Shown piece by piece: positions 3,712 through 31,281 of a stretch of 64,000 nt of DNA. How positions within the stretch are numbered: the first letter of the stretch is position 1; each line of letters starts with the position of its first letter. The DNA lies in assembly GCA_963663025.1 (NCBI GenBank), contig OY760073.1, forward strand, positions 1,897,354 through 1,961,353. The letters run 5' to 3'. The DNA is from Dehalococcoidia bacterium (lineage in GTDB: Bacteria; Chloroflexota; Dehalococcoidia; Lucifugimonadales; JAGWBF01). Under the pieces are notes generated by a model, which made no database searches, was not told the origin of the DNA, and saw nothing but the letters and a program-made list of their open reading frames with translations. Both the position numbers and the translations under genes were made by a program.

Positions 3712-3714
3712 AGC

Positions 3715-4332: not shown

Positions 4333-4367
4333 TGCTGCGGCATGCTCCTTCCGGGGAAGCCAGGGGA

Positions 4368-5033
4368 TCAGATGCCCCGTCTGCTCTTCACATACAACAG
4401 GATTCCAGCGCCGATAACGAGCAAGGCGCCACCCACGATGAGGGGTATGATCCACCACAAGGCCGATATGGCGCTGGCGGGCGTGTCTTCGATAGTGAAA
4501 GTGGACTCCGAGCTGCTGGTTTCCTGGGCTGTGCTGAAGTTCACCGTCGCCGTGTAATCTCCGCCGAGATCAGGAGGATAGTAGACAATGGAGTAACTTA
4601 TCTTGCCCCCGCTGTAGCTCATAGCCGAACCGCTGCCACCCGGAGAGACACCATCGTGGGTCACGGTCAGCCAGGCGCTTCCCACTGAGTAGGGGTCTAC
4701 ACCTTCGGGAGGTCCCCCCGTAATGTAGTCTCCCTTCCCCGTGGGCAAGTTGATGATGATACCCGTGAACCCGGACTCCCCTTCTGCCTGTCTTACCTCG
4801 AAGGTGGCAGATACGAACACTTCCTCTCTGCCTTCCAGGTCCACCTCTACATCGATAGTCACTTCATCTCCCTGGGCAAACATGGTCTGGCTGGCATCAC
4901 CACTCTTGGATGCCGTTACGTCCACCGACAGTCCCAGGGCTTGGTCGGGACGCAGCAGGAGGAGGGCTATAACGAAACAGGCAGCCAGCGATGCGTAAAT
5001 GGGAAGATATCTTGCCTGCTTCAGTTGAGTCAT
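4368..5033 (-). CDS. secreted surface protein with C-terminal transmembrane anchor
   Basis: ATG 5033 preceded by AAGGAG; N-terminal signal-like segment (YLPIYASLAACFVIALLLL...ALG); C-terminal helix WWIIPLIVGGALLVIGAGILLY followed by KSRRG. Confidence 0.6.
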   Translation of the reverse strand: MTQLKQARYLPIYASLAACFVIALLLLRPDQALGLSVDVTASKSGDASQTMFAQGDEVTIDVEVDLEGREEVFVSATFEVRQAEGESGFTGIIINLPTGKGDYITGGPPEGVDPYSVGSAWLTVTHDGVSPGGSGSAMSYSGGKISYSIVYYPPDLGGDYTATVNFSTAQETSSSESTFTIEDTPASAISALWWIIPLIVGGALLVIGAGILLYVKSRRGI

Positions 5034-5180
5034 CTGGTTTCTCCTTGGTTGAGGGAACGCTGGTAGGAGAGCCTCGGGGCAGACCGCCAAGGTGTAACTA
5101 ACTGCTGAACATATCATCTAGGCCAAAGCCAAGTCAATAAATGCCGCATCGATATTGTGAGACCTCAGTCTCTCTTTGTC

Positions 5181-5209
5181 TTGACAGTCAAAATGCCCTT
5201 TGCTAGCAT
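5181..5209 (+). promoter_or_regulatory. sigma70-like promoter of the hopanoid cluster
   Basis: TTGACA (5181-5186) - 17 nt - TAGCAT (5204-5209) in the AT-richer gap upstream of the polyprenyl synthase. Confidence 0.5.
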
Positions 5210-5263
5210 TTCGGAGCATCGGATTACGATGTACACCGCCTTTTCTGAATTAACGTTGTCGCA

Positions 5264-6370
5264 GTGGAACGGATAGCCAAGACTCAACCTACTGACCAGG
5301 GGGCCGGTCCGGCCCCCGTCCCACCTATGTTCTCTCGCTATCAAGCCCACATCCTTTCGGGCCTCAAGCATGCCGTTCCTGGCAATAGTCTTCCAACCGA
5401 TGAAGATGATGCATCCGTTGAGCTTTACCGGATGATGGCTTACCACATGGGCTGGATGGACGCCTCCGGTCAGGTTGCGGATAACTCCGCGACCCAGGGG
5501 AAGGCCCTCCGGCCCACGCTGTGCATGTTTGCCTGCGAGTCCCTGGGGGGCGACTGCTCCCGGGCTGTGCCGGTGGCATCGGCGCTGGAGCTCATTCACA
5601 ACTTCTCCCTGGTGCACGATGACATTCAGGACGGCGACGTGGAGCGTCGCCACCAGCCCACGGTGTGGTGCCTGTGGGGCCAGCCCAAGGCTCTCACAGC
5701 AGGCAATGCCCTTCGATCGGCAGCCGACATTTCCCCCCTGCGTTTGACGGCGCAGGGTGTGCCCCCAGCCAAGGCCCTGAAAGCATCCCGGATTCTCACC
5801 GAAGGCTGCCTGTCCATGATCCAGGGCCAGTGCATGGACCTCTCATTCGAAGGACGCCTTGACATTGGCTCGGGCGACTACCTGGACATGGTTTCGAAGA
5901 AGACCGGGGCGCTGATCCGATGCGGGACCGAGATGGGCGCCCTCATCGGCTGCGACGATGACTCCAGCACCGAGATCTACGCCAGCGCCGGGGCACACCT
6001 GGGAATAGCATTTCAGGTGCGGGATGACGTGCTCGGCATTTGGGGCGACTCTGAGGTTACCGGGAAGGCTTCCGGTAACGACATCCGTCGCCGAAAGAAG
6101 TCCTTCCCGATCGTCTACGCGCTGGAAACGGCAACCGGCGTTCCCCGCCAGCGCCTGCTGGAAGCCTACGGTAAAGACACCCCAGATGAAGGGGATGTGG
6201 AAGATGTGCTGACCGTCCTCGGCGATGTGGGCGCTGAGGCCCACGCCCACCGGATGGCGGTTGACCAGGGTGAGTTGGCGTCGGGAGAGCTGAAGAAGAT
6301 ACCAGTGGAGCCCTGGGCACAAGCCGAGTTTGATGATCTAGTGCATTTCTTGACCACCAGGCAGAGCTAG
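5264..6370 (+). CDS. polyprenyl diphosphate synthase (FPP/GGPP synthase family)
   Basis: First and second Asp-rich motifs LVHDDIQDGD and FQVRDDVLG; start may be ATG 5327 rather than GTG 5264. Confidence 0.85.
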   Translation: MERIAKTQPTDQGAGPAPVPPMFSRYQAHILSGLKHAVPGNSLPTDEDDASVELYRMMAYHMGWMDASGQVADNSATQGKALRPTLCMFACESLGGDCSRAVPVASALELIHNFSLVHDDIQDGDVERRHQPTVWCLWGQPKALTAGNALRSAADISPLRLTAQGVPPAKALKASRILTEGCLSMIQGQCMDLSFEGRLDIGSGDYLDMVSKKTGALIRCGTEMGALIGCDDDSSTEIYASAGAHLGIAFQVRDDVLGIWGDSEVTGKASGNDIRRRKKSFPIVYALETATGVPRQRLLEAYGKDTPDEGDVEDVLTVLGDVGAEAHAHRMAVDQGELASGELKKIPVEPWAQAEFDDLVHFLTTRQS

Positions 6371-6392
6371 ACGAGAAGCAAAGGGTGGTCAG

Positions 6393-7457
6393 ATGTTGAG
6401 GCAACGAAAGGCAGACATGAAAACTTCCAAGAGACCCATGGAACTATCCCTCCGGCTGGCTGCGTACATGTTGAAGAACAAATTGACGCGCAGGAAGCGT
6501 TATCCGCTGGTCACCATGCTGGAGCCGTTGGAGATGTGCAACCTGGCCTGCATCGGGTGTGGACGCATCCACGAGTACAAGCCAGTAATGGACAAGATGA
6601 TGCCCGTGGAGGAAGCGGTCGCAGCGGTGGAAGCATCGGGGGCGCCCATCGTCTCCATAGCCGGTGGGGAGCCCACCATTCATCCGAAGATAGACCAGAT
6701 CATAAACGAGCTGGTACGGCGCAAGTACTTCGTCTACTGCTGTACGAACGGAATACTCCTGGAGCGAGTCCTGAAGAAGGTCCCCCCATCCAAGTACCTG
6801 TCCTGGGTGGTCCACATGGACGGCATGGAGCAGCGCCACGATGAGGCTGTCGCAAGGGAGGGCGTGTACAAGAAGGCGAAGAAGGCCATAGAGACCGCCC
6901 TGGAAGGCGGATACAGGGTCTGCACCAACACAACCATCTTCCGGGGATGCGACGTCGAAGACCTTCACACCCTCTTCCGCACCATGACCGACATGGGGGT
7001 GGAGGGCTGCATGGTCTCCCCCGGATACGACTACATCGATGCTCCCGATCACGACCTGTTCCTAACCAGGGAGGAGTCCAAGCGGGAGTTCGGCAAGATC
7101 CTCGATGAGCGTTCCACGAAGGGGATGCGCCTGTACAACAACCCTTTGTACCTGGACTTCCTGCGGGGTCGCAGGGAGTACCAATGCACCGCCTACTCTA
7201 ATCCGACCTACACAGTAATGGGATGGCGCAAGCCCTGCTATCCCCTTGCTGACGAGCATGTAACCGACGTGAACGAGCTGTTCGAAGAGTCGCTGTGGGA
7301 TAACTACGGAGTCGGTAAAGACCCAAGGTGCTCGGGGTGCATGATGCACTGCGGCTTCGAGTCAGCCACTGTCTTTAATGCCATTTCCAGCCCCAGGGAC
7401 TGGGTGACCCTGGTGAAGTCAGGGGCCATAGGGAAGAGCGGTATCACCGCCAGCTAA
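6393..7457 (+). CDS. hpnH: adenosyl-hopene transferase (radical SAM)
   Basis: 354 aa; KRYPLVTMLEPLEMCNLACIGCG radical-SAM CxxxCxxC in the HpnH-typical N-terminal context; located in hpn cluster. Confidence 0.9.
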   Translation: MLRQRKADMKTSKRPMELSLRLAAYMLKNKLTRRKRYPLVTMLEPLEMCNLACIGCGRIHEYKPVMDKMMPVEEAVAAVEASGAPIVSIAGGEPTIHPKIDQIINELVRRKYFVYCCTNGILLERVLKKVPPSKYLSWVVHMDGMEQRHDEAVAREGVYKKAKKAIETALEGGYRVCTNTTIFRGCDVEDLHTLFRTMTDMGVEGCMVSPGYDYIDAPDHDLFLTREESKREFGKILDERSTKGMRLYNNPLYLDFLRGRREYQCTAYSNPTYTVMGWRKPCYPLADEHVTDVNELFEESLWDNYGVGKDPRCSGCMMHCGFESATVFNAISSPRDWVTLVKSGAIGKSGITAS

Positions 7458-7494
7458 GTCTATAGCAAGGCCCCAGAGAGGAAGGCTGAAGCTT

Positions 7495-8220
7495 TTGATA
7501 GCAGTCCTGGCATCCATGAAACGCGAGATTTCGGCGGTCGCCAAGCTCCGCTCGGTGGAGAACTATCCGGGAGGAGTCCGATTTGTGATCACCGGCGTCG
7601 GGCGGGAAAAGGTCGAAGCGTCCCTTGACGCCATGGATGAATGGGAGGAAAAGCCGTCCGGGATCCTATCCCTGGGCTATGCCGCTGCCCTGGAAGAAGG
7701 GCTCGAGCCGGGGGACCTGGTTATCGGCGACGCACTGTGGGCGACGGGAGAGGAGGCTTGCCTCCAGGCCGACCCGGACCTTCTGGCCCAGGTAAGGCGA
7801 GTGACGGAAGGGGTACAGCCCGGTCGCTGCCGCATCGCCAGCTCCGTAACCCTGCACGGCATCGCAACGAACCGCGCCGAAAAGCGCTTGATGGCGGCCA
7901 TGACATCTGCCTCCATCGCCAACATGGAGGACTACTGGGTAGCCAGGTGGGCATTCGATCGGGGCATACCCTACGTCAGCGTGCGCTCGGTGCTGGACAC
8001 CGTGTCCCAAGAGGTACCGGAGTTCATCTCCAAGCTGGCTGGGTTGAAGCTGCCCATCCAAATAATGGGCGTTGCCATACAGGGCATCGTGCGCCCCGAA
8101 AAGCTCGAGTCGCTGCTACGGCTGTTCAAGGAAGACCGGGTGGCCCGAAGGAGCCTGAAGGAGTTCGGCGCCATCTTCTTGTCGGGGAGCTTCGGCGCCC
8201 AGAGCTATGCTGCTACCTAG
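7495..8220 (+). CDS. hpnG: hopanoid-associated phosphorylase/nucleosidase
   Basis: 241 aa, TTG start; PNP/UDP-phosphorylase-like pattern, position between hpnH and hpnA. Confidence 0.65.
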   Translation: MIAVLASMKREISAVAKLRSVENYPGGVRFVITGVGREKVEASLDAMDEWEEKPSGILSLGYAAALEEGLEPGDLVIGDALWATGEEACLQADPDLLAQVRRVTEGVQPGRCRIASSVTLHGIATNRAEKRLMAAMTSASIANMEDYWVARWAFDRGIPYVSVRSVLDTVSQEVPEFISKLAGLKLPIQIMGVAIQGIVRPEKLESLLRLFKEDRVARRSLKEFGAIFLSGSFGAQSYAAT

Positions 8221-8258
8221 AATGACTGGTCCACTCGGACTTGGGAGGTGTTACGGGG

Positions 8259-9242
8259 ATGGTGGTCCTGGTAACGGGAGCTTCCGGATTCATCGGCGCA
8301 AATGTGGCACGCAGCTTCCTGGAACGTGGCTACCAGGTAAGGGCGCTGGTGAGGAAGGAGAGCAACACCCTTGCCCTCCAGGGAACGAGCATCGAGCTGG
8401 CATATGGTGACCTGCTCGACCGGGACTCGGTTGCTCGGGCTCTCCAGGGCTGTGAAGCCCTCATCCACTGTGCGGCGCTCTACACCTTCTGGGCCCGAGA
8501 CCCTGCTCCCATTTATGAGGCAAATGTCGGTGGGACGAGGTTGGTGTTGGAAGAAGGAATGAAGGCCGGAGTGGAAAAGTGCGTCTATACCAGCACCGTC
8601 TCCACGATTCACGCACCTGCGGACAGGCCCGGCGTCGAGGATGACTGGCCGGCGGAAGACGAGATGATAGGACACTACAAGAGGTCCAAGCACCGCGCGG
8701 AGGTGGTTGCGCGCAGGATCGGCGACGAGGGACTTCCCGTCGTGATTGTGAACCCCACGGCTCCCGTGGGTCCCTGGGATGTAAAACCCACGCCTACCGG
8801 GCGCATAGTGCTGGACTTCATTCGCCGGCGGGTGCCTGCCTGCATCGATACAGGAATGAACGTAGTCGATGTGGAAGATGTGGCCCTTGGCCATGTCCTT
8901 GCATTGGAGAAGGGGGCTCCGGGAGAAAGATACATCCTCGGGAATGCCAACCTGACCCTCAGGCAGATGTTCGGGATGTTGGAGGATGTATCGGGGGTCC
9001 CTGCCCCACGCTGGGATCTACCCATGTGGGTGGCTGTGGGCGCAGCGTACGTGGACAACTTCATCGAAGGCGGCCTGATGAGAAGGGAACCGGCTATTCC
9101 CCTGGAAGGGGTGAACGTGGCCCGTAAGCCGGTCTATGTGAAATGTGACAAGGCATCCCAGGAGCTGGGAATGCCGCAGAGGCCCGTAGGGGAAGCCTTG
9201 GAGAAAGCGGTGGGCTGGTTCAGGGCCCACAGTTACGCCTGA
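8259..9242 (+). CDS. hpnA: hopanoid-associated NAD-dependent sugar epimerase
   Basis: VLVTGASGFIGANVARSFLERGYQVRALVR Rossmann motif, YxxxK (YKRSK); GGAGG 10 nt upstream of ATG 8259; ORF open from TTG 8241. Confidence 0.75.
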   Translation: MVVLVTGASGFIGANVARSFLERGYQVRALVRKESNTLALQGTSIELAYGDLLDRDSVARALQGCEALIHCAALYTFWARDPAPIYEANVGGTRLVLEEGMKAGVEKCVYTSTVSTIHAPADRPGVEDDWPAEDEMIGHYKRSKHRAEVVARRIGDEGLPVVIVNPTAPVGPWDVKPTPTGRIVLDFIRRRVPACIDTGMNVVDVEDVALGHVLALEKGAPGERYILGNANLTLRQMFGMLEDVSGVPAPRWDLPMWVAVGAAYVDNFIEGGLMRREPAIPLEGVNVARKPVYVKCDKASQELGMPQRPVGEALEKAVGWFRAHSYA

Positions 9243-9279
9243 GGTCGAATTGGACCTTAGTTCCGGGGAAAGGACGAGT

Positions 9280-11364
9280 ATGCCTGTTGCTCCTGTGTTG
9301 ACAAGGAATATGGTGGATACGGAGCTAACCGAAGCCATCAAAAAGTCCCAGGACTACCTGCTTTCCATCCAACATCCCGAGGGGTACTGGTGGGGCGAGC
9401 TGGAATCCAATCCGACAATGGAAGCGGAGTACCTGCTCTTGACCTACTTCCTGGGTGCGGTTGACAAGGAGCGCTGGAGCAAGCTGGCAAACTACATCCT
9501 CCAGAGGCAACAGGACGACGGATCCTGGGGACAGTACTACGAAGCCCCGGGCGACGTGAGCACCTCGGTGGAGTGCTACTTCGCCCTCAAGCTGGCGGGA
9601 ATATCCCCGGAGCGCCCGGAGATGCGGAAAGCCCGCGAGTTTATCCTGTCAAAGGGCGGGGTGCCTGAGGTTAGAGTGTTTACCAAGATCTGGCTGGCCC
9701 TGTTCGGCCAGTGGGACTGGAAGGGCACTCCAACGATGCCCCCGGAGCTTATGTACCTACCAACCTGGGCCCCCTTCAACATCTACCAGTTCTCCAGCTG
9801 GGCGCGGGCCACAATCGTCCCAATGACCATCATCCTCACCAACAAGCCCTGCAAAGCTGTCCCTGAGTGGGCATCCATTCAAGACCTTTATCCCGCCGAT
9901 TGGACCGAAGACAACTATAAGCTCCCCAAACCCAAGGAGCTTTTTAGCTGGCGCCGTGCCTTCTATTACGTGGACATGGTAATCAAGGCCTACCAGGCTC
10001 TCCCCTTCAAGCCTGGTCGGAAGCGGGCACTGCGGAAGATCGAGGAATGGACCGTTGATCACCAGGAAGCGGATGGCTCCTGGGGGGGCATACAGCCCCC
10101 CTGGGTCTATTCCCTGATTGCCCTTCACCATCGGGGATACTCCCTGGACCACCCCGTAATCAAGAAGGGCCTGGAGGGGTTCGAGCGCTTTGCAATCGAG
10201 GACGAGACCACCTGGAGGGTCCAGGCCTGCGTCTCGCCTGTTTGGGATACATGCCTCGTTCAGATTGGCCTGCTGGACTCGGGCCTGGCTCCGAGCCACC
10301 CTGCGGTACAGGCATCCACAAAATGGCTGGTCGAGGAACAGGTGCACTCAGGTGGTGACTGGCAGGTAAACGTCAAGGACGTGGAGCCTGGGGGATGGGC
10401 CTTTGAGTTCGCCAACGACAACTACCCTGACGTGGACGATGCCGCCGAGGTCATCATTGCCCTGAACATGGCCCCCATGGAACGGGAAGATGACGAAACT
10501 CGGAAGCAGAAAGCTATCGAAAGAGGCGCCCGTTGGATGCTTGCGATGCAGTGCTCAAACGGAGGCTGGGCTGCATTCGACAAGGACAACGATAAGAGCC
10601 TTCTCTCAAAGATACCCTTCAGCGATTTCGGTGAGGCCCTGGACCCTCCCAGTGTCGATGTTGCTTCCCACGCAGTGGAAGCGCTGGCAAAGCTGGGCTA
10701 CACAAGGGACGATCCGGCCATTGATCGGGCCTACAAGTACATTCTGGCCGAGCAGGAGGAGGAAGGTCCCTGGTTCGGTAGGTGGGGCGTTAACTACATA
10801 TACGGAACAGGGGCGGTCCTTCCGGCCCTGGAGGCCATCGGGGAGGACATGCATCAGCCCTACGTTAGTCGAGCGGTTGAGTGGCTGATATCCCACCAGA
10901 ACGACGACGGCGGCTGGGGCGAGAGCTGTGACTCCTACGTCGATGAGGCCTCATGGGGAAAGGGACCCAGCACTCCCTCTCAGACTGCCTGGGCTCTTAT
11001 GGCCCTTATGGCAGCGGGAGAGACTGACCACATCGCAACCCAAAACGGGGTCCACTACCTGATAACCACGCAGAACGACGACGGTACCTGGGAAGAACCT
11101 TATTACACAGGCACGGGCTTCCCGGGCTACGGCGTGGGCCGGAGGCTCAAGGGACTTCCCAAGCCCGGTGAATCCGGGTACCAGGGCGCGGAAATGGGTG
11201 CAGGGTTCATGATCAAGTACCACAGCTATCGCAACTGCTGGCCTCTCATGGCGTTGGGGCGCTTCCGCAACATGACACACCTGCCCCCGGTAATCCTGGG
11301 GGCGAATGGCACGAATGGCTCCAGCCCTGCAGGCTTCGGGAAACCTGGTGAATCAAAGGGATAG
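9280..11364 (+). CDS. shc: squalene-hopene cyclase
   Basis: Multiple QW repeats (e.g. QQDDGSWG, HQNDDGGWG, TQNDDGTWEE), catalytic DVDDAAEV (DxDD); ATG 9280 with GAAAGGA upstream, ORF open from 9250. Confidence 0.95.
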   Translation: MPVAPVLTRNMVDTELTEAIKKSQDYLLSIQHPEGYWWGELESNPTMEAEYLLLTYFLGAVDKERWSKLANYILQRQQDDGSWGQYYEAPGDVSTSVECYFALKLAGISPERPEMRKAREFILSKGGVPEVRVFTKIWLALFGQWDWKGTPTMPPELMYLPTWAPFNIYQFSSWARATIVPMTIILTNKPCKAVPEWASIQDLYPADWTEDNYKLPKPKELFSWRRAFYYVDMVIKAYQALPFKPGRKRALRKIEEWTVDHQEADGSWGGIQPPWVYSLIALHHRGYSLDHPVIKKGLEGFERFAIEDETTWRVQACVSPVWDTCLVQIGLLDSGLAPSHPAVQASTKWLVEEQVHSGGDWQVNVKDVEPGGWAFEFANDNYPDVDDAAEVIIALNMAPMEREDDETRKQKAIERGARWMLAMQCSNGGWAAFDKDNDKSLLSKIPFSDFGEALDPPSVDVASHAVEALAKLGYTRDDPAIDRAYKYILAEQEEEGPWFGRWGVNYIYGTGAVLPALEAIGEDMHQPYVSRAVEWLISHQNDDGGWGESCDSYVDEASWGKGPSTPSQTAWALMALMAAGETDHIATQNGVHYLITTQNDDGTWEEPYYTGTGFPGYGVGRRLKGLPKPGESGYQGAEMGAGFMIKYHSYRNCWPLMALGRFRNMTHLPPVILGANGTNGSSPAGFGKPGESKG

Positions 11365-20178: not shown

Positions 20179-20466
20179 ATGGCTACAGGACCGAGTCCAC
20201 GCCAAGTCATAGAAGAGATGGGTGGGGCCAAAGCGGTCCTTGCGGGGTTTACTGAGTTCTATAACAGGATGAACGCCCTGGATGCCAAGCGATCCCAGCT
20301 TACCGAAGAGTACCCCGATAAGTGGATCGCCTTGCACAACGGAGAGGTAAGTGTCAGCTCCGATTCCCTGGAAGAACTCCTTGGAGAAATGGACCGCCTC
20401 GGCATACCAAGGAAAGAGTCCATCGTCGAATTTATGGAAACCGAGCGCAGAAACCTGGTTCTTTAG
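20179..20466 (+). CDS. small protein resembling DUF5678-type proteins
   Basis: 95 aa, good RBS (GAGAAGGGGAAA-ATG); C-terminal EYPDKWIALHNGEVSVSSDSLEELL pattern. Confidence 0.6.
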   Translation: MATGPSPRQVIEEMGGAKAVLAGFTEFYNRMNALDAKRSQLTEEYPDKWIALHNGEVSVSSDSLEELLGEMDRLGIPRKESIVEFMETERRNLVL

Positions 20467-20478: not shown

Positions 20479-20919
20479 TTGATTAGCGGAACCTTTGACC
20501 CAACGTACAGACGGCCCTACGTCCGGGGCCGTCTTGCTTTACCCGGCCTCCACCTCGATGACTACATCTACTTCCTCGTGGATACTGGGGCAGACACCAC
20601 CACGATCTATCCCCGCGACGCGCTGCGCATGGGCATCGACTACGACAAGCTCTCTCCCGTGGAGGTCCCCCAGTACGGGGTCGGAGGCATCGAATATGCC
20701 TCTGAGGAACACGCAAACATCTTTTTCCAAGATGGCCGCTCTATCCGCACTTACACCATCCTGGTATCCGTTCCTAGGCCAACGGAACACAATATTCGCC
20801 TCCCCTCTCTCTTGGGCCAGGACATCATCCAGTACTGGAGAATGGTCCACGACAAACGCCGGGACCGCTTGACCTTCACCGTTCGCCGGGCAGACCTGAC
20901 CCTGCGCAGCCACCAATGA
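20479..20919 (+). CDS. retropepsin-like (clan AA) aspartic protease, single domain
   Basis: 146 aa; FLVDTGADTTTI catalytic DTGA at residues 35-38 and SLLGQDIIQYW near the C terminus, parallel to retroviral LLDTGADDTV / IIGRNLL. Confidence 0.75.
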   Translation: MISGTFDPTYRRPYVRGRLALPGLHLDDYIYFLVDTGADTTTIYPRDALRMGIDYDKLSPVEVPQYGVGGIEYASEEHANIFFQDGRSIRTYTILVSVPRPTEHNIRLPSLLGQDIIQYWRMVHDKRRDRLTFTVRRADLTLRSHQ

Positions 20920-22491: not shown

Positions 22492-23220
22492 CTTTATCCC
22501 CCTCACTCCAACCCTCTCCCGCCAGAGGAGAGGGGGCCCCAATATCTCCCCCCTCCCTTGATGGGAGGGGACTAAGGGGAGGGTGAAACACTGAAGGGAG
22601 CCATCCTGCTAGCCGGCAGCGCTCCGTCCTGGATTGCGGCCTCCGCCGCAATGACGAACAAGGTGGAGGGCGCCCATACCGTCCCACCTGCCCGTTCACC
22701 CTTCGAGGGCCTCAGGGCGAACGGACAGTATAAGGCCCACGCCCCCCGTTCGTGCTGAGCACCCCCTTCCGTTCGTGCTGAGGCTCTCGAAGCACGAAGG
22801 GACAAGCCGCCCCTACATTAGAGCCATCCTGGAACCCGGCAGCGCTCCGTCCTGGATTGCGGCCTTCGCCGCAATGACGAATAGCGTGGAGGCCGCCCAT
22901 ACCGTCCCACCTGCCCGTTCACCCTTCGAGAGCCTCAGGACAGGCTCAGCAGGAACGGGCCCCACCGTCATTGCGGCGTAGGCCGCAATCCAGGAAAGTC
23001 AGACCGGGAACAGCTGGTTGTGACGACCCCCCCACCGTCATTGCGGCGTAGGCCGCAATCCAGGAAAGTCAGACCGGGAACAGCTGGTTGTGACGACCCC
23101 CCCACCGTCATTGCGGCGTAGGCCGCAATCCAGGAAAGTCAGACCGGGAACAGCTGGGTATGACGAAAACCCCCCACCGTCATTGCGGCGTAGGCCGCAA
23201 TCCAGGAAACCTAGGTCGGG
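22492..23220. repeat. REP/BIME-like mosaic array 3 (includes 70-bp tandem)
   Basis: Modules C-D-A-B-B-A-B then four tandem module-A units. Confidence 0.9.
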
Positions 23221-23251: not shown

Positions 23252-23587
23252 TCAGGGCGGCCCAATAAGCCACGAACCGCCGTCAGCCTCAGTGATCCTC
23301 AGGCCGTGGGCCCTGGCGATGGCTTCGTGCACCGACGATAGCTCCGCAGGAGGATTGGCGAGTTCCAATAGCAGGTCGCGCCCGTGGCTTTGTGAAAGCT
23401 CGCCCATCGAGTGCAGCAGCTCATCGAAGAAGGATGGCGTAAATCCTTGGATTCCCGCAAAGTCCAGCGCCAAAGATTCCGCCGATTCATTCAACGCCTC
23501 CGCTATGCCCGCTCCCACATTCCTGGCCGTTGTCCTCGTGACAAGCAATTTGAATGCGACCATATCTGCGATGCCTATCATGCCCAC
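23252..23587 (-). CDS. STAS-like protein resembling DUF4325
   Basis: 111 aa; LALDFAGIQGFTPSFFDELL pattern; GGAGGTG RBS; 11 nt downstream of the ATPase gene. Confidence 0.65.
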   Translation of the reverse strand: MGMIGIADMVAFKLLVTRTTARNVGAGIAEALNESAESLALDFAGIQGFTPSFFDELLHSMGELSQSHGRDLLLELANPPAELSSVHEAIARAHGLRITEADGGSWLIGPP

Positions 23588-23598
23588 ACCTCCGCCCC

Positions 23599-24204
23599 TC
23601 AGCCCGGAATCGAAGCGTAAGCTAGCGTACCGGGAAACAACTTTGTACGCCGTGCCTGGCTCTGGAGTTCTTCCCCTATCTGAAGCACACCAATACCGGA
23701 CTGTATTAAGAGCTGCCTTTGCGCCTTTCGCACCTCTTCCACCACGCTGAATAGCCCCATACCCCTGGTGGGGTCCTGCGTTCCGCTTACCCGTTCCTGC
23801 ATAGCAACCTCAATCGCCACCCAGTCATAGGGCACCCGGGCCAACAGCGCAGGGTTCCGCTCCAGCGAGCGCCTGATCCCTATTCCTCCATCAGCTACGG
23901 CGCAGATGAACCGAGGCCCGTTGGCCGACTCCCGGTATTGGATATAACCGAAGGCGCCGACCTCGGATTCCGAGTGCTGGACTGCATTGAGCGCCAGCTC
24001 GGCGAAAGCGTCGGCCACCACTTGGTAAATGTTTGAAGCTCCAAGCCCGGAACCTGTCAGACCATCGATTACATCGTTGGCGACCTTCTCGACTTGGTAC
24101 TCGGATTCCAGATCGGTCAATGGCAAAATGAGCCTTTCAGTGCCTCCGCCTGGAACATCTCTATCGTCGATCGCCACTCCCTTTTCCTTCAGGATATCGA
24201 ACAT
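23599..24204 (-). pseudogene. 3' part of IS-disrupted STAS-GHKL ATPase gene (SpoIIAB/RsbW-like kinase domain)
   Basis: N-box ELALNAVQHS, G1 VADGGIGI, G2 TRGMGLF. The ATG at 24204 is internal to the reconstructed gene. Confidence 0.75.
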
Positions 24205-24374
24205 GCCAAGGGACTTCAGGTAGCTGGGTTCCGTTTGCTTCTAGTGTCTTGCCTATGGTAGCATTTCCGTATGGCTGAGTTTAACCACCGAGAAGGGATA
24301 TTGCGTTCAGTGTGAGATGAACAAACGGACGCCCTGGAGTATGCGGCTCCAGGGCGTCCAGACCAAGGGGGGCT

Positions 24375-24648
24375 ATGGAGATGCTGGTTAACGTCCTGTC
24401 GTTGGTACTTGGGTGTTCGGTTGTATTGGGGAGTTTCTTTGCTGGCTGGCTTCTAGGTGCGCTTCTGAATTCTGACTCTTGGGCGACGAGCATAGGTAGC
24501 ACGGCTCTACTCCTATGCGGATTTTTTGGCGTCGTCGCACTTGTACCTTTGCTACTATCCCAAGCATTATGAAGGTGAAACTCAACATGAAGGTTGAGAA
24601 GATTGCTAGGAGACTAGTAACATCCGTTACGCCGTGCTCAAACAGCAT
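24375..24648. other. small hydrophobic ORF(s) inside the IS, strand ambiguous
   Basis: Plus-strand 65-aa two-helix ORF (24375..24572). Overlapping minus-strand 86-aa ORF (24388..24648) has an AAGAGG RBS and a downstream hairpin at 24327-24359. I cannot decide between them. Confidence 0.3.
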
Positions 24649-24689
24649 AATTACCTCTTAGTGCAGAAGCTAGCTTACAACAAACACAA

Positions 24690-24977
24690 GTGTGGTTGTC
24701 AACTATGAGCAGGCGCAGGAAGAACGGAGACCTGACCGACTATGAGTTGGCTTGGGTTGTGCGGGAAGTTTCCAAGCTCACCAACAAGAGTTTCCGTGAG
24801 ATCGGAGAGAACCTTGCCAACGAAATGTCCGACAATGAGGATGTTCTCTCCGAGGATGACTTCGAGCTAGGGAACAACATCGCTGCCACGCTGGAAACGC
24901 TTTGGCCCAGAGAGGGATTATGGCAGCCTGGGCCGAATGCAGAGCGGGCATTGAAGCTAATCCAACGGGTGCTGTAG
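24690..24977 (+). CDS. IS accessory ORF (hypothetical)
   Basis: 95 aa (probably from ATG 24705), ends 9 nt before the transposase ATG; weak RBS. Confidence 0.4.
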   Translation: MWLSTMSRRRKNGDLTDYELAWVVREVSKLTNKSFREIGENLANEMSDNEDVLSEDDFELGNNIAATLETLWPREGLWQPGPNAERALKLIQRVL

Positions 24978-24985
24978 GAGCTCAC

Positions 24986-26146
24986 ATGACCGAGTTTACC
25001 GAGACCACAACCTACATCATCACCTGCCCCGACTGCCAGGGGAATAAGGTCAGGAAGCACGGCTTCCAGGCAGGGCAGCAACGCTATTTCTGCAAGGGCT
25101 GTAAAAAGGCGTTCCGTGCCAACGGCAAAGCCCAGGGCCGCAGAATGGACGCCGACATGGTGGGTTCCGCCATCAGGGACTACTACACTGGCAAAAGCTA
25201 CAAGCAGATTGCCGAAGGGCTGAAGAATGAGTACGACCTGGCGAAGGAGCCGAGCAAGGCCACCATCTATGAGAACGTGAGGGATTACACCACCAAGGCC
25301 GTTGGGGAGCTGAAAGACCACAAGGCCAAGACGGGCGGCCACTGGGTAGCCGATGAAATGCAGGTGGATGTGGGCGGGGAAAAGGTGTGGCTGTGGAACG
25401 TGATGGACTCCAAGACCCGCTACATTCTGGCATCCCATCTGACACCAAGACGGGATGCCCAAGCCGCCAGGGTGGTCTTGCGAAAGGCGGCGCTGGCGGC
25501 AGATAAGCCCCCCACAAGCATCACGACCGACAAGCTACGTTCCTACATTCCAGCCGTCAAGGATGTCATTCCCGAGTCCAAGCATATCCAGTCCGAGGGG
25601 ATGCGGGCCAAGGTCAACAACAACCTTTCGGAGCGTTTGCAAGGGACCTTCAGAGACCGCATAAAGACTTTGCGGGGCCTCGACAGCATCAAGACTGGTC
25701 AGCACTACCTCGACGGCTGGACGCTGACTTACAACCATTTCCGAGGCCATGAAAGCCTTGGGAATAAGACGCCAGGGGAGAAGGCGAAGATGAAGCCTCC
25801 GTTCAGGGAGTGGGCAGACGTGGTAAAAGCAGGGGCCGCAACCCTGCCGAAGGTAAAGGCGGGGAAGCGGCCATCGCTATCGTTACCGAAGTCGAGACAG
25901 CCAAAAGCCAGCCAGGATAAGGAAGCTGGCACGAAACGACGTGGACGCATCAAACCGCCCAAGCCTGTGTTGCCGAAGGTGGGACGGTCTCAAGCAGACC
26001 AGGGTAAGAAAGCTGGCAAGAGACCACGTGGTCTTATCGAACCGCCCAAGCCTGTGTTGCCGAAGGTGGGACGCCGTGCCAAGAAGCCTAAATCTCGAAC
26101 TCCCAGGTGGGCAAGAGTCATCCCACGTCTGCCACGACGGAATTAA
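24986..26146 (+). CDS. DDE transposase with N-terminal CxxC..CxxC zinc finger
   Basis: AGGAG 5 nt upstream of the ATG; CPDCQGNKVRKHGFQAGQQRYFCKGCKKAF. DDE-like blocks WVADEMQVDV, SITTDKLRSY, NNNLSERLQGTFRDR (IS6/IS240-type spacing). Basic C-terminal tail with a 29-aa tandem duplication. Confidence 0.85.
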   Translation: MTEFTETTTYIITCPDCQGNKVRKHGFQAGQQRYFCKGCKKAFRANGKAQGRRMDADMVGSAIRDYYTGKSYKQIAEGLKNEYDLAKEPSKATIYENVRDYTTKAVGELKDHKAKTGGHWVADEMQVDVGGEKVWLWNVMDSKTRYILASHLTPRRDAQAARVVLRKAALAADKPPTSITTDKLRSYIPAVKDVIPESKHIQSEGMRAKVNNNLSERLQGTFRDRIKTLRGLDSIKTGQHYLDGWTLTYNHFRGHESLGNKTPGEKAKMKPPFREWADVVKAGAATLPKVKAGKRPSLSLPKSRQPKASQDKEAGTKRRGRIKPPKPVLPKVGRSQADQGKKAGKRPRGLIEPPKPVLPKVGRRAKKPKSRTPRWARVIPRLPRRN

Positions 26147-26172
26147 CTGTCACTGGCCAGTGACAGTTAATT
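26141..26172. repeat. perfect 32-nt palindrome at the IS right end
   Basis: AATTAACTGTCACTGG|CCAGTGACAGTTAATT overlapping the transposase stop codon. Confidence 0.85.
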
Positions 26173-26209
26173 GGACGCAAAACGTCAAACACTACTAGCA
26201 AACGGAACC

Positions 26210-26450
26210 GGTAGCTGCACACCCCCATGTTTTCCGGCACGAGAAGGGTGCAGTCGCACCCCCTCCGTTTGGCCAGCAGGGAGTACACCAGGCACCACAT
26301 CACCGCCGAAGGTTCAATGAACTCGCAAGTCCGCAAATCAATCTCCACGCTGGATTCTCTGAACTCGGAAGCCCGGGGGTCTGGCACAGCGAACCCCTTC
26401 AAATTGCCTGGATGATTAAACCTGGGTAAGGGTACAAACCTCACAGGCAT
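26210..26450 (-). pseudogene. 5' part of IS-disrupted STAS-GHKL ATPase gene (STAS-like domain)
   Basis: MPVRF...IDLRTCEFIEPSAVMWCLVYSLLAKRRGCDCTLLVPENMGVCSY. Removing the IS plus one target-duplication copy joins it in frame to ...LKSLGMFDILKEKG of 23599..24204. Confidence 0.7.
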
Positions 26451-26564: not shown

Positions 26565-27322
26565 CTTTATCCCCCTCACCCCAGCCCTCTCCCACCAGGG
26601 GAGAGGGAGCCCCAATATCTCCCCCCTCCCTTGATGGGAGGGGACTAAGGGGAGGGTGAAGCACTGAAGGGAGCCATCCTGCTAGCCGGCAGCGCTCCGT
26701 CCTGGATTGCGGCCTTCGCCGCAATGACGAACAAGGTGGAGGGCGCCCCAGCCGTTCGTGCTGAGGCTCTCGAAGCACGAAGGGAGGGTGAAGGACGAAC
26801 CCCACCGTCATTGCGGCGTAGGCCGCAATCCAGGAAACACAGGCCGGGAACAGGCCGCCCATACCGTCCCCCCTGTCCGTTCGCCCTTCGAGTCCCCTCA
26901 GGGTGAACGGCTGTACAGGCCCACGCCCCCCGATTCTCCCCTTCGAGTCCCCTCAGGGCGAACGGGCAATGCGGCTGACTCCCCCCGTTCGTGCTGAGCA
27001 CCCCCTGTCCGTTCGTGCTGAGGCTCTCGAAGCACGAAGGGGCAGACCGCCCCTGCACTAGAGCCATCCTGGAACCCGGCAGCGCTCCGTCCTGGATTGC
27101 GGCCTACGCCGCAATGACGAATATCCTTGCAATGATGAAAAGCCTGGGGGGCCCAGGGCCAGGAAGGCGTCGGGGGTGAAGACAACGCCCCCACCGTCAT
27201 TGCGGCGTAGGCCTCAATCCAGGAAACCTAGGCCGGAGGCAGGCCGCCCATACCGTCTCCCCTGCCCGTTCACCCTTCGAGAGCCTCAGGGCGAACGGAC
27301 GGCTTCCCTCAGGGTGAACGGA
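26565..27322. repeat. REP/BIME-like mosaic array 4
   Basis: Modules C-D-A-B-A-B-B-B-A-A-B; first 184 bp nearly identical to 22492..22675. Confidence 0.9.
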
Positions 27323-27585: not shown

Positions 27586-30500
27586 ATGAAGATTCAAAGG
27601 TCCAGGTACTTTCTAGGCGGAATAGGCGTACTGCTCCTGCTCTTAGTGGGCGCATTGTGGGCAGTGGCTGCCGTTGCTTCTCCTTCCGGACAAACCCAGG
27701 GGACCATCGCGTTGGATGACACCTACGTGAGGTCCGACTGCGGCGCCGGCTCTGCCGACGACTGCACGCTCAAGGTCACGGTTAACGATGCCGACCTGAG
27801 CAAGCCCGTAGCGGTCGGCCACGGCAAAGACCGCAGCGTGAGCGTAACTATCACCAAAGAGGTCAGCGCGGCCAGGTTCAACACCCTGGTTGTCGATATT
27901 GACGGTGGCATGGCCTTCACGGCCCAGGACGCGGATGATAAGGGGACTGTCTCTCACACACCGGACCGGGACGGCGTGCTCCCCATAGTCGGCAGCGTCT
28001 CCATTGACTACGACAACAGCACTGGTATCGGCTCCTCTAAGAGCCCCGACGTCGAAGTGGCCCGTGATCGGGTGCAGGGCGGCAAGCAGCTGATCGATCT
28101 GAAGCTTAACAAAAACCTGGACGCTAACGACGTTATCGCCCTGTCCTACAACACCTCGGATGAAGAGGGAACCGTCGCCTCCGTCAGGGGCGACGAAGGC
28201 ACCATGTACCTGAACCTCCAGGAGCAGCTCGGCGGGACCGAGTCGGGCTTCGGCGGCCAGGGCAAGTACGCCGGGACCTTCGAAGTCGCCAAGAGCGTCA
28301 CCATAGATGTGAACGACATCAAGGGCGAGCAGCACATGGTCCCCGCCGGGCTACGGAGCGGAAGGCAGTTCACAGAGAACCTGGAAGTCGGAGATGCCGA
28401 CATTGCCGATAACGGGACCGTAGAGGTTACAGTCAGCAACCCCACCCTGCGGGACAACGACAAAGACGGCGACATTGCCGACGACATTAAGATCCTCAGG
28501 GGAGAGGTGGAAGACCCGGTTGTCGTCAATGCCGGGACGGGAACGATAACGTTCACCGCTACCGATGACATCAAGGCCAACTCCACCATCAGGATCAGCT
28601 ACTACGGCGACGATCACTTCAACATAGACCTGGACTACAGCCCCGCGCGGGATGACCTGACAGAGTCCGACATAGCGGTTCCCCAACCCGGCATGTTCAG
28701 CGACCTCTACAAGTGGCGCAAGGCCACCAGAAGCCGCATAACCCTCAGCGTGGAGGCGAACACGCCTTCCAACGGAGCGGTCCTGGCAGTCTCCTACAAG
28801 GGTACCCAAACGGTCGTTAACCAGGACGGAGACATAGCTGCCGGAGGTGAATTCGAAGTCGAGCTCATAGAGAGGGCGAATACCGTGCCCGTTAACATCA
28901 CCGTGCTTGGCGACAACGGAAGCACGACCGATGTGAACGCGGTCGCCACGGGAGATGGCAAGACCTGGGCGCGAGTCACCTTCACGGCAGGCGCCGACCC
29001 CGTTAAGGACGGCCAGTCCTTCTACATACACTACGACGACATGGAATTCCCCAAGGCCTTCAACCCCCAGAACGCCCTGGACGCCGAAGCTACCACCAGG
29101 CCCATCCTGAAGGTCGATCCCAGCCCGGCGGGCGAGGCCCGGGCCATCTATGATGATGTCACCGGAGGCGATGCCAGCATCGTGGCAACGGTGGAGAACT
29201 CGGGGCCGTCGGTGAGCGGCGCGTCCCCGGCCAACGGCAGCTCCTTTGCGCCGGCCAACGCCCCCACCCTGTCGGTCGTCATCACCGACATGCCTGCGCC
29301 ACCCCTGGGGTCCGGCGTGGACACAGATACGGTCGAGTTCTACGTCAGCACCGCCGGCGCCAAGACGATGACGGGAGGCCAGACCTTCACCGGTGACCTG
29401 AGCACCGACGACGCGGGCGTCGTAACGGCTTCCCTGCCTCTCATCAACGACCCCAACAAGCGGACTGACGAGTTGAACATCAAGGACGGGGATGCACCGA
29501 ACATCAGCTGGTGGGTGACAGTCGCGGACAAGGTCGGGAACGAGACCACCAGCGACGCCAAGCCCGACGACAAGGACGACAAGACCACCGACGATGTGGG
29601 CAACCAGCCCTACACCCTGAAGATAGACACCACCGCCCCCAAGTCGGTTGACGAAAACACGGTGACGGGTCAGTACTACGATGCGTCCGAGAAGGACTCC
29701 TCCAAGCGCATCAAGGACAACCGTCGCAACAGCATACGGCTGGCCTTTGACGACCCCATTAACGCCGACAGCGTGGACGCCGACGACTTCACGGTTACGT
29801 CCGGCGGCGCGACCATAGCGGTTGAATCCGCGGACGTACAGGGCAGCGACATCTACCTGACCCTGGCCGAAGACCTGTCTTCGGATGCGACCCCCACGGT
29901 GACCGTCCTGGCCACCGACGACCGGATCACAAACACGGCGGGCAACATGCTGGCCACGGGCGACATCAAGGTCAGCGACTATATCGACCCCGGCATCAGC
30001 GTGTCCCTGTCCAAGAGCCTGAGCACCGGCGACCTGAGCGTGACCGTCGCCACCGACGAGGACATAATCAGCGTTCCCTCGGTTGACCTGTACTTCGGCG
30101 ATACCAGGATACGCGCCGTGGGCAGCGCCAAGCGGACCTCGCCCACGGTCAACGAGTGGACCTTCGCGGTCACCATAACCGAGCGGGCCGACGGCTCCGA
30201 TGACGGAGACAACAACGACTCCGATGGCGTGTACAGCGTGATTTCAAGCGCCCTGGACAAGGCCAGGAACCGGGCCGAAGTGGGCAACAAGGACACCTCG
30301 AAGGACAACGCCATCAAGTTCGAGATAGACACCGACCTGGACAACCTAATGGTTGAGGACGACGGGGACTTCGACACCCTGTCCTCGGGCGACCTGGTGG
30401 GCGAGACGGACATCTACTATTTCGGCCTGAAGTGGAACGACGACAAGGAGTACGACGGGGACAGCCACAAGGGCGTTACCCTGACCACCGCCGTGCTGAA

Positions 30501-31281
30501 CTCGGGCGACAAGGACAACGAAGTGGACCTGACGGCGGGCATAGATCCTGCCGGCTCGGCGACCAGCTTCACCATAACGGCCGAGGGCCTGCCCAAGGGC
30601 AAACACACCCTGACGGTCAGAGGTGTGGACGATGCCGGGAACAAGTCGGAGAACGTCACGATAAACTTCACGATCACCGAGCTCTCCTTCGACTTCCAGC
30701 TACGGCGGGGCGTGAACCACATCTCCCTGCCCAGGAACCCGGCTAACATGGACATCAACGCGGTGTTCGGAGAGGTGTCCCAGGTAACCTCGGTGTTCAC
30801 CTACGTGGACGGCACACCCAAGGCAGCCTTCCGCGACCCGGCCACCAACGAGTTCGTGGGCGACCTGACGCAGATAGACGCCAGCCATGCCTACGGCGTG
30901 GAGTCCACGGGCAGCGTGAAGATAACCATAGCCATACCCAACGTGTCGGGCAGCGTGGCGCCCCCGACGGTGATGGTGAACCAGGGCTGGAACTTCGTGC
31001 CTGTGATCACCCTGGACGACATCAACGTGATCAACGACCAGCCCGTGATGGACGCCGACGCGTACCTGGGCTTCGGGTGGACCAGCGGTTGGACATTCTT
31101 CAACAGCAGGTGGACATCCATAGCGCCCGATCCCAAGAACGACAACCTCAACTGCGACAACGACGCCCAGGAGAGCGGTGAGGTGCACATAGGCAGAGGC
31201 TACTGGGTGTACTACGAGGGCGCATCGAGCCTGAACCCAGGCTCAGTACCCACCAAGGCAAGCTGCACGCCTAGCTCGTAG
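27586..31281 (+). CDS. large acidic secreted/cell-surface protein (S-layer- or adhesin-like)
   Basis: 1231 aa; GGGGAGAGG RBS; N-terminal signal/anchor GGIGVLLLLLVGALWAVAAVASP; D/T/V-rich beta-type sequence with Ig-like segments (e.g. DADDFTVTSGGATIAVESADVQGSDIYLTL). Confidence 0.8.
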   Translation: MKIQRSRYFLGGIGVLLLLLVGALWAVAAVASPSGQTQGTIALDDTYVRSDCGAGSADDCTLKVTVNDADLSKPVAVGHGKDRSVSVTITKEVSAARFNTLVVDIDGGMAFTAQDADDKGTVSHTPDRDGVLPIVGSVSIDYDNSTGIGSSKSPDVEVARDRVQGGKQLIDLKLNKNLDANDVIALSYNTSDEEGTVASVRGDEGTMYLNLQEQLGGTESGFGGQGKYAGTFEVAKSVTIDVNDIKGEQHMVPAGLRSGRQFTENLEVGDADIADNGTVEVTVSNPTLRDNDKDGDIADDIKILRGEVEDPVVVNAGTGTITFTATDDIKANSTIRISYYGDDHFNIDLDYSPARDDLTESDIAVPQPGMFSDLYKWRKATRSRITLSVEANTPSNGAVLAVSYKGTQTVVNQDGDIAAGGEFEVELIERANTVPVNITVLGDNGSTTDVNAVATGDGKTWARVTFTAGADPVKDGQSFYIHYDDMEFPKAFNPQNALDAEATTRPILKVDPSPAGEARAIYDDVTGGDASIVATVENSGPSVSGASPANGSSFAPANAPTLSVVITDMPAPPLGSGVDTDTVEFYVSTAGAKTMTGGQTFTGDLSTDDAGVVTASLPLINDPNKRTDELNIKDGDAPNISWWVTVADKVGNETTSDAKPDDKDDKTTDDVGNQPYTLKIDTTAPKSVDENTVTGQYYDASEKDSSKRIKDNRRNSIRLAFDDPINADSVDADDFTVTSGGATIAVESADVQGSDIYLTLAEDLSSDATPTVTVLATDDRITNTAGNMLATGDIKVSDYIDPGISVSLSKSLSTGDLSVTVATDEDIISVPSVDLYFGDTRIRAVGSAKRTSPTVNEWTFAVTITERADGSDDGDNNDSDGVYSVISSALDKARNRAEVGNKDTSKDNAIKFEIDTDLDNLMVEDDGDFDTLSSGDLVGETDIYYFGLKWNDDKEYDGDSHKGVTLTTAVLNSGDKDNEVDLTAGIDPAGSATSFTITAEGLPKGKHTLTVRGVDDAGNKSENVTINFTITELSFDFQLRRGVNHISLPRNPANMDINAVFGEVSQVTSVFTYVDGTPKAAFRDPATNEFVGDLTQIDASHAYGVESTGSVKITIAIPNVSGSVAPPTVMVNQGWNFVPVITLDDINVINDQPVMDADAYLGFGWTSGWTFFNSRWTSIAPDPKNDNLNCDNDAQESGEVHIGRGYWVYYEGASSLNPGSVPTKASCTPSS

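Follow-up and report, generated by a model that had tools for sequence, protein, structure and literature searches.

An IS6-interrupted STAS–GHKL kinase gene and its DUF4325 partner in a Dehalococcoidia genome

The interrupted kinase gene and its intact partner

The stretch of DNA considered here comprises 64,000 nucleotides of a Dehalococcoidia genome (phylum Chloroflexota; GenBank assembly GCA_963663025.1, contig OY760073.1, positions 1,897,354 to 1,961,353) and is referred to as the window. On its minus strand lies a kinase gene, here called K, which has been split in two by an insertion sequence (IS), followed by a small intact gene of the DUF4325 type, here called S. The 5' fragment of K (26218..26450, minus strand) starts at the ATG at 26450 and encodes residues 1-77 and part of codon 78, its product reading MPVRF...IDLRTCEFIEPSAVMWCLVYSLLAKRRGCDCTLLVPENMGVCSY before it runs into foreign sequence. 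This open reading frame (ORF) covers most of a STAS-like domain, preceded by an N-terminal segment that is specific to the clade and has a conserved DPR motif, and is matched by the hidden Markov model (HMM) of the K family at positions 1-90 (E 2e-24). The 3' fragment (23599..24226, minus strand) supplies the rest of codon 78 up to residue 286 and the stop codon, and is recognised as an ORF, by its fold and by the K-family HMM (positions 78-285, E 2e-83). Its product, ...LKSLGMFDILKEKGV..., consists of the end of the STAS-like domain and a GHKL (Bergerat-fold) kinase domain bearing the segments ELALNAVQHS, VADGGIGI and TRGMGLF.

Between the two fragments sits an IS6-family element of 1983 bp (24227..26209, plus strand), identified by its inverted repeats, its transposase and a duplicated target site. 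The duplication is 8 bp long, as is characteristic of the IS6 family, and reads GGTAGCTG in both its right copy (26210..26217) and its left copy (24219..24226), the latter belonging to the restored reading frame. When the element and one copy of GGTAGCTG were excised in silico, the halves of K met in frame (...VCSY/LKSLGMFDIL...) to give an ORF of 286 aa. The protein retrieved 525 matches overall, from Dehalococcoidia and other Chloroflexota, and aligned with intact homologues of 284-285 aa over 99% of its length, the best of them at 77% identity (E 8e-138). Since intact homologues of full length exist, the reconstructed K cannot be a chance reading frame, and the reconstruction put forward in a first-pass annotation of this DNA, made from the sequence alone, turned out to be exact down to the 8-bp duplication, the in-frame junction and the end-to-end match. 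K in this genome is therefore an IS-generated pseudogene and the kinase side of the pair is dead, with S left orphaned, because the element sits in codon 78 of K. That the target duplication is perfect and both halves of K are free from any other lesion marks the insertion as recent.

The downstream gene S (23252..23587, minus strand) is intact. Its ORF starts 11 nt past the stop codon of K (TGA, 23599-23601) and, read from the GTG at 23587, encodes 111 aa. A GGAGG box at 23590-23594 lies 8 nt upstream of an ATG at 23581, which makes this ATG the more likely start, with a product of 109 aa, and S is probably translationally coupled to K. At 109-111 aa, S is a STAS-like domain and nothing else, and no additional domain was seen on the small partners.

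The interrupting element is bounded by terminal inverted repeats of 21 bp (24227-24247 and 26189-26209). Its transposase ORF (24902-26146, plus strand; likely ATG start near 24986, stop codon 26144-26146) encodes a DDE enzyme with an N-terminal zinc ribbon, which scored 79.9 bits with Pfam DDE_Tnp_IS240 (PF13610) and 123.8 bits with the NCBIfam IS6 model (NF033587), just below the equivalog cut-off of 125. The IS6-type DDE transposase, the short inverted repeats and the 8-bp target duplication are shared with the IS6 (IS26) family. Unlike its relatives, however, the element is about twice the usual IS6 length and carries both a repeat-rich C-terminal extension of the transposase, in which a tandem repeat of 2x87 nt (25882-26055) encodes a K/P-rich repeat, and two extra small ORFs, one transmembrane-like (24388-24648, minus strand) and one of no family (24690-24977, plus strand). 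The transposase ORF ends within a perfect 32-nt palindrome (26141-26172). Inside the element, the GC content is as low as 0.515 (bin of 24-25 kb), and it deviates nowhere else. No further copy of the element was found in the window, and it had no plasmid match.

Domains, conserved residues and relatives

The K family was described by a profile and alignment of 69 full-length relatives, reaching down to about 25% identity. Over residues 18-90 the profile matched the STAS proteins TM1442 (E 0.0095) and MlaB, and its C-terminal part matched histidine kinases and, weakly, SpoIIAB and RsbW (E 0.03-0.24). A single-sequence search of the reconstructed K against the sequences of the PDB gave no match, so that the profile was needed. 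Pfam domains were assigned to part of the family only, with HATPase_c found in 28/69, HATPase_c_2 in 24/69, STAS_2 in 7/69 and STAS in 2/69. The protein begins some 30 residues ahead of the STAS-like domain and carries no helix-turn-helix (HTH).

The signature residues of the GHKL domain are far more constant. In the numbering of the 77%-identical homologue P0001, to which 2 must be added for the reconstructed protein of the window (N156 = N158), the residues N156, H160, G190, G192, G233 and L234 are invariant in 69/69 relatives, and E152 and D188 are kept in 68/69. The reconstructed K has an N box (E154-N158-H162), a G1 box (D190-G192-G194) and a G2 box (R232-G233-x-G235-L236), and thus all of the family-invariant GHKL residues are present, including N158, the equivalent of N218 in the kinase CapK, which is introduced below. 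An AlphaFold2 model of P0001 was obtained with a predicted local distance difference test (pLDDT) score of 95.3 and a predicted template modelling (pTM) score of 0.93. Foldseek comparison of this model with the PDB returned GHKL domains only, the best target-normalised match being SpoIIAB, with a template modelling (TM) score of 0.69-0.71 and a root-mean-square deviation of 3.8 Å; against viral structures only generic GHKL matches were returned. K can thus be assigned with high confidence as a predicted STAS-like domain fused to a GHKL kinase domain, the STAS part being supported at the level of the family. The domain assignments of the first-pass annotation accordingly stand, that of K at family level, by its invariant boxes and by the SpoIIAB match at a TM score of 0.71.

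Two systems described recently, both kinase/STAS pairs that sense DNA damage and turn on a toxin or immune operons, give this architecture a setting. The genes of CapK, an HTH-STAS-GHKL kinase, and CapS, a STAS repressor with a winged HTH (wHTH), precede CBASS, Bub, Bil and Thoeris operons (Chambers et al., EMBO J 2026, PMC13373217). The toxin-antitoxin-like VapKSC system consists of VapK (STAS-GHKL), VapS (STAS and a short tail) and the PIN toxin VapC, and was found to protect against a phage (PMC13373217). Activation by single-stranded DNA (ssDNA) was demonstrated in vitro for CapK, and was inferred for VapK from an AlphaFold 3 model and an F54A mutant, with the DNA site placed in the groove between the STAS and GHKL domains, at CapK W68 or VapK F54 (PMC13373217). 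Phosphorylation of a conserved serine in STAS helix alpha-2 (CapS S54, VapS S48) then frees the partner from DNA or from VapC (PMC13373217). For comparison with K and S, the VapS sequence was taken from PDB 9Z7O and the VapK and CapK/CapS sequences from the supplements of that paper; the PDB entries of the CapK/CapS system are 9Z71-9Z73.

In profile comparisons by hhalign, the 69-member K profile matched E. coli VapK with a probability of 99.0% (E 5.6e-18) in an alignment of 240 columns that extends across both domains, and E. roggenkampii CapK with a probability of 98.8% (E 1e-16) over 222 columns, which cover the GHKL domain and, of the STAS-like domain, the C-terminal part. F44 of the window protein falls at the position of VapK F54 in the hhalign alignment, and of CapK W68; the equivalent residue is F in 44/69 relatives and F or Y in 46/69. 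On the side of the small partner, an S profile of 35 members matched a VapS-family profile (E 8.1e-6, probability 84%) and, among PDB sequences, 9Z7O, 'Escherichia VapS' (E 0.021). The VapS homologues are all annotated as PF14213/DUF4325. Three VapKSC loci were retrieved, with genes for 297-298, 116 and 203 aa, and in the enterobacterial loci the S-partner HMM picked out VapS and nothing else. A tblastn search of plasmids with a VapS fragment gave no match. It is these profile matches to VapK, CapK and VapS that place the K-S pair in the CapK/VapK-CapS/VapS kinase-substrate family.

The motif T50-P51-S52-F-F of S aligns with ...D-S-S54-F-P... of CapS, with S52 at the position of S54. This serine is invariant among close homologues of S, and in the wider set of 58 partners a serine stands at the position in 50 of the 55 whose motif was correctly read. 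The motif took the form [TSAG]-P-S in 49 partners, S-P-A in two and S-Y-S in one, four of the others having been mis-anchored by the regular expression. S52, predicted to lie at the start of helix alpha-2, is on these alignments the candidate phospho-acceptor. An AlphaFold2 model of S, built from a 10-sequence alignment (pLDDT 85), shows the order beta-alpha-beta-alpha-beta-alpha-beta, which is compatible with a STAS fold. The top Foldseek matches of this model, methyltransferases and ClpP, were set aside as generic alpha/beta matches, and ribokinase, the best match of the S profile among PDB sequences (E 2e-4), was judged spurious on account of a Rossmann-like beta-alpha-beta segment.

Outside the STAS core, the most conserved feature of S is a C-terminal block, HEAIARAHG...W in the window and LS-x-[KV]-[HF]-x-A-I-x-R-x-H-G ... 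E ... W in the family, which has no counterpart in VapS. A joint MAFFT alignment of VapS with the S family misaligned the C-terminal halves and was discarded. One protein of 128 aa (P0131) has a K-like N-terminus (…FAHAGVLPP…DPRDPDFEED) that runs directly into S sequence, and appears to be the product of a gene-fusing deletion or of a mis-assembly.

Pairing and genomic surroundings

A profile search of genome contigs with 16 of the closer K sequences, restricted to one genome per species, yielded 70 loci, mostly from metagenome-assembled genomes (MAGs) of Dehalococcoidia. Scattered members of the K family occur in Binatia, 'Deltaproteobacteria', Gemmatimonadales, Acidobacteriota, Planctomycetota and one archaeal MAG, and more distant relatives in Rubrobacteraceae, Acidimicrobiia and a spirochaete. 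In every one of the 60 Chloroflexota-type loci, S follows K directly, so that the self-contained cassette of a STAS-GHKL protein and a DUF4325 STAS protein which the first-pass annotation had proposed, and which is indeed present on the minus strand of the window, is a conserved pair. No S partner in these 60 loci carries a wHTH, and an HMM search of all loci for the VapC/PIN gene found none in the Chloroflexota-type ones, its only matches being in three enterobacterial loci (L011-L013) and in the spirochaete locus (L083, Spirochaetia), which is a true VapKSC. Nor is there a conserved third gene: when 503 neighbouring ORFs were clustered, no family was present in more than 9 of the 70 loci. 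The Chloroflexota clade is thus a 'KS-only' variant, with no wHTH on S, no VapC/PIN and no conserved third gene.

A jackhmmer search seeded by RpoD found a sigma-70-family gene within +/-6 kb in 0/60 Chloroflexota-type loci, a search that extracytoplasmic function (ECF) sigmas could escape, and no sigma factor or PP2C phosphatase was present among the Pfam-annotated neighbours of homologous loci. Among the window ORFs scanned (about 13-39 kb) there was likewise no sigma factor, nor a PP2C phosphatase. The earlier statement that neither lies near the cassette was thereby borne out, with the same proviso for ECF sigmas. The picture differs in the Rubrobacteraceae, where four loci (L074, L077, L078 and L079, at about 6000-9500) hold distant relatives of K (27-29% identity) whose partner of about 200 aa has both a weak match to DUF4325 and a MarR-like wHTH, an architecture like that of CapS. 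There, a sigma-70-family gene (regions 1.2 to 4) lies about 1.1 kb past the partner, which is about 1.8 kb downstream of the K relative.

The genes that recur around the pair are housekeeping genes. In eight Dehalococcoidia species gyrA lies directly upstream of K on the same strand (L043, L050, L053, L054, L057, L059, L060 and L068), and in these loci (about 3350-5970) gyrA is itself preceded by a Peptidase_C26/GATase gene. Other recurrent neighbours are a purine operon ending in purS, an arrangement of icd upstream and mdh downstream, methylmalonyl-CoA mutase and an enolase-superfamily gene. The gap between K and a preceding purS or gyrA is 12-50 nt, and the end of S overlaps the start of mdh in L003-L006. 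The synteny is stable inside lineages and different between them. The adjacency of gyrA is worth recording, as relatives of K sense ssDNA, but may be no more than synteny within a lineage. A search of 2.9 million viral contigs found only two relatives, at 26-27% identity.

The interruption of K in the window is not unique. In another Dehalococcoidia MAG (L047, 6001-8609) K is cut after residue ~222 by an IS256-like transposase gene (6765-8009, 414 aa), an insertion independent of that in the window, and the downstream S is again intact. Altogether, about 10 of the 60 Chloroflexota-type loci have a truncated or split K (such frames were listed for L046, L049, L061, L063, L067, L068, L069, L071 and L072), while S is uninterrupted in 60/60. 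Such an asymmetry is expected if the loss of S is harmful. Given the lengths of the two genes, however, the excess of lesions confined to K is marginal (P about 0.03), and the split frames could reflect either decay of K alone or indel errors in long-read MAGs.

In the window, the cassette had been described as sitting in a repeat-bounded island. The bounding repeats proved to be copies of a perfect 20-nt hairpin, ATTGCGGC-N4-GCCGCAAT, present 44 times in the window against 0 expected, from 19404 to 46465 and once more at 62201, and occupying most of the intergenic gaps between 19.4 and 46.5 kb. The copies occur in both loop orientations at an irregular spacing of 70-230 nt, and those that flank the cassette form clusters, for example at 22633-23201 and 26706-27218. 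The hairpin looks like a dispersed element of this genome resembling repetitive extragenic palindromes (REP) or bacterial interspersed mosaic elements (BIME). As the repeats are window-wide, the apparent island is an artefact, and a repeat-bounded island was rejected on their account and on two others: no tRNA gene lies near the cassette, the sole one in the window being at 51.5 kb, and no Rfam family was matched in 18-33 kb. Nor was an integrase found among the window ORFs scanned, and the only shift in GC lies inside the IS. The idea of a defence-island setting fared no better, with housekeeping genes on either side, no match for K or S in PADLOC-DB v2 at E <= 1, and the family essentially absent from viral contigs.

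The window neighbours are an epimerase, a PEP-mutase-family enzyme, a sugar kinase, an aldolase, a large Ig-like surface protein, HrcA and an M1 peptidase. On the 3' side of S, REP-like repeats are followed by the divergent PEP-mutase-family gene. On the other side, across a further REP-like cluster, the gene for the surface or secreted protein (27586-31281, plus strand; 1231 aa, D/T/V-rich, with one Big_5 Ig-like domain) is divergent from K. Some 2.3 kb from the cassette lie genes for a DUF5678 protein (20179-20466, plus strand; 95 aa) and a retropepsin-like aspartyl protease with a DTGA motif (20479-20919, plus strand; 146 aa), the latter a weak match to the PADLOC candidate system PDC-M08B (E 7.7e-5). 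In L002/L014, L052 and L055 the K-S pair likewise adjoins small gag-asp-protease-like genes; no link between these and the retropepsin-like gene of the window was found by blastp.

Interpretation and comparison with known systems

It can be said with high confidence that the locus holds a two-gene kinase/substrate module belonging to the CapK/CapS-VapK/VapS family, in a copy that has been inactivated. The fuller explanation, to which we give a probability of roughly 0.6, is that the module is effector-less and that its intact copies work as a ligand-switched kinase acting on S. By homology, K would bind ATP through the conserved N, G1 and G2 boxes, and would be activated by a ligand in the groove that separates the STAS-like domain from the GHKL domain. 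The analogy with W68 of CapK and F54 of VapK makes ssDNA, stacking on F44, the most plausible ligand. Active K would then phosphorylate S52, the equivalent of CapS S54 at the start of helix alpha-2, and the phosphate would alter the binding of S and release it from a bound target. As S has no wHTH and is accompanied by neither a toxin nor a third gene, that target should be either the product of a gene elsewhere or some general component of the cell, and the C-terminal motif (R-x-H-G ... W) may be the likeliest output surface. In the present genome, where K is dead, S would by the logic of the family stay unphosphorylated permanently.

Several observations weigh against this explanation. Taken alone, K of the window scores a marginal 18.8 bits with HATPase_c_2, below the cut-off of 27.4, and its N-terminal domain has no Pfam STAS match. 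About one in three members of the wider family has neither F nor Y at the predicted ssDNA-contact position, and the lysines K237 and K239, which contact DNA in the CapK model, have no exact counterparts in K by motif alignment. S itself passes the DUF4325 (PF14213) cut-off only narrowly, with 23.2 bits against 23, and compared with CapS alone its similarity is weak (E 0.01). Its model found nothing in the PDB at E <= 0.001 by Foldseek, the only STAS-containing matches being SLC26-type transporters at a TM score of ~0.5 and E ~0.05. In two of the 58 partners the motif is A-P-A or A-P-G, so that neither the acceptor position nor the one two residues earlier holds a Ser or Thr. Finally, no phosphatase able to reset the switch was identified, and the output step, with neither wHTH nor toxin to carry it, is conjecture.

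An accessory or conflict role, such as defence, had been suggested for the cassette from its surroundings. That argument from context fails, for the reasons given above, but the suggestion itself retains some force from the relatives of the pair, since CapK/CapS and VapK/VapS/VapC, themselves similar to partner-switching modules, are immune-associated. The pair could then be a VapKSC-like toxin-antitoxin or abortive-infection system whose effector acts in trans or is K or S itself, with the IS insertion an escape from a costly defence gene. VapKSC does protect against a phage (PMC13373217), DUF4325 genes have been found coupled to PIN.4 nucleases (PMC5499597), and the Francisella prophage FhaGI-1 carries, beside CI and Cro repressor genes, a pair encoding 293 aa and a 112-aa DUF4325 protein (Fhv_0046/0047; PMC7924643), which is likened to K-S by sizes and order alone. 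The independent IS256-like insertion would fit such an escape, the excess of lesions in K over S would be expected were S a protective inhibitor, and the DUF5678 and retropepsin-like pair, with its weak PADLOC match, is not far away. On the other hand, neither a PIN nor another toxin is adjacent, neither K nor S is matched by PADLOC, the locus has no hallmarks of an island, its neighbours are housekeeping genes in a synteny that is stable by lineage, only the two distant relatives turn up among the viral contigs, and the asymmetry is of marginal significance and may come from frameshifts introduced in MAG assembly. A defence role of this kind is therefore considered unlikely.

Classical partner switching, with K an RsbW/SpoIIAB-type anti-sigma kinase, S an RsbV/SpoIIAA-type antagonist and the sigma factor elsewhere in the genome, would account for SpoIIAB being the best target-normalised structural match and for the weak SpoIIAB/RsbW profile matches, and annotators at the Joint Genome Institute (JGI) have indeed named some homologues 'anti-sigma regulatory factor'. 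K is, however, a far closer match for VapK and CapK (E 1e-16 to 6e-18) than for SpoIIAB (E 0.03), and classical anti-sigma kinases are proteins of about 145 aa that lack its fused STAS-like domain. The sigma-70-family gene of the four Rubrobacteraceae loci speaks for this alternative, but the partner there bears a wHTH as in CapS and the sigma gene may be a coincidence of synteny in one family; the Chloroflexota-type loci have no such gene within reach, ECF sigmas excepted, and no PP2C or sigma factor among their annotated neighbours. We hold partner switching to be quite unlikely. A GHKL ATPase that is no kinase at all, with the STAS-like domain and S serving nucleotide or anion binding or assembly, as a chaperone-like or metabolic regulator of the adjacent operons, would suit the apparent co-transcription with metabolic genes, and the GHKL fold also matches the ATPase domains of Hsp90/TRAP1 and GyrB. 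To our knowledge, the STAS domains of SLC26 and MlaB are not phospho-switches, which was counted on the same side. The homology is nevertheless specific to the kinase clade (VapK, CapK, SpoIIAB and histidine kinases), Hsp90 and GyrB reaching TM scores of only ~0.2; a near-invariant serine occupies the known phospho-acceptor position of S; and the adjacent housekeeping genes vary by lineage, which leaves no single metabolic partner. The homology to that clade and the conservation of the acceptor serine make this possibility very improbable.

Within the preferred explanation, that of an effector-less kinase/substrate module, one may go further and ask what the intact copies do. The KS-only clade, which numbers over 500 proteins, most of them from Dehalococcoidia, might be a chromosomal, vertically inherited stress switch that answers ssDNA or DNA damage, S acting in trans on a core target. 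The gyrA gene lies directly upstream in eight species, and S has a conserved C-terminal motif of its own; both observations are compatible with this proposal, which is drawn by analogy and is rather unlikely as it stands. Were it true, the clade would be a housekeeping offshoot of a family of immune regulators, possibly with an SOS-like input in Chloroflexota. In any case, the locus indicates that the sensor-substrate core of immune and toxin systems also exists without an effector, among housekeeping genes, in a mostly uncultured and little-studied phylum, and it poses the question of what a DNA-damage-type kinase/STAS switch controls if both a repressor domain and a toxin are missing. The target of S, if found, would show how far this signalling logic reaches beyond phage defence, and may bear on how Dehalococcoidia sense DNA damage.

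Of the systems known, SpoIIAB/SpoIIAA and RsbW/RsbV share with K-S the pairing of a GHKL serine kinase with a single-domain STAS protein and, for the model predicted here, the fold of SpoIIAB at a TM score of 0.71. K differs from these kinases in its fused STAS-like domain, being twice the size and only marginally similar in sequence (E 0.03), and its operon holds neither a sigma factor nor a PP2C phosphatase. The likeness to CapK/CapS is closer, comprising the homology of the kinases, the order of kinase followed by STAS substrate, and S52 at the position of the experimentally phosphorylated S54 of CapS. Unlike CapK, K has no N-terminal HTH, and the genes downstream are housekeeping genes rather than an immune operon. 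S lacks the C-terminal wHTH of CapS, and for this reason it cannot act as CapS does, as a repressor that binds DNA.

The comparison with VapK/VapS is closer still in architecture. K (286 aa) and VapK (297 aa) have the same STAS-like and GHKL arrangement and full-length profile homology; S and VapS are DUF4325 STAS proteins of about 110-116 aa encoded immediately 3' of the kinase gene; and both pairs have an aromatic residue at the F54 position and a serine at the N-terminus of STAS helix alpha-2. In contrast to VapKSC, no VapC/PIN gene follows S, whose C-terminal tail is unrelated to the helix that plugs VapC and has its own HEAIARAHG...W motif, and whose local motif is P-S-F-F, not S-P-F-F. 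The setting also differs, K-S lying among housekeeping genes in Chloroflexota and not in a defence island or next to a prophage. No description of an effector-less Chloroflexota K-S pair was found in the literature searched, and PMC13373217, which was included, makes no mention of Chloroflexota, DUF4325 or effector-less pairs. The type of system to which K and S belong was described in 2026, and the conserved KS-only clade, set among housekeeping genes, departs from the published members in lacking a recognisable effector.

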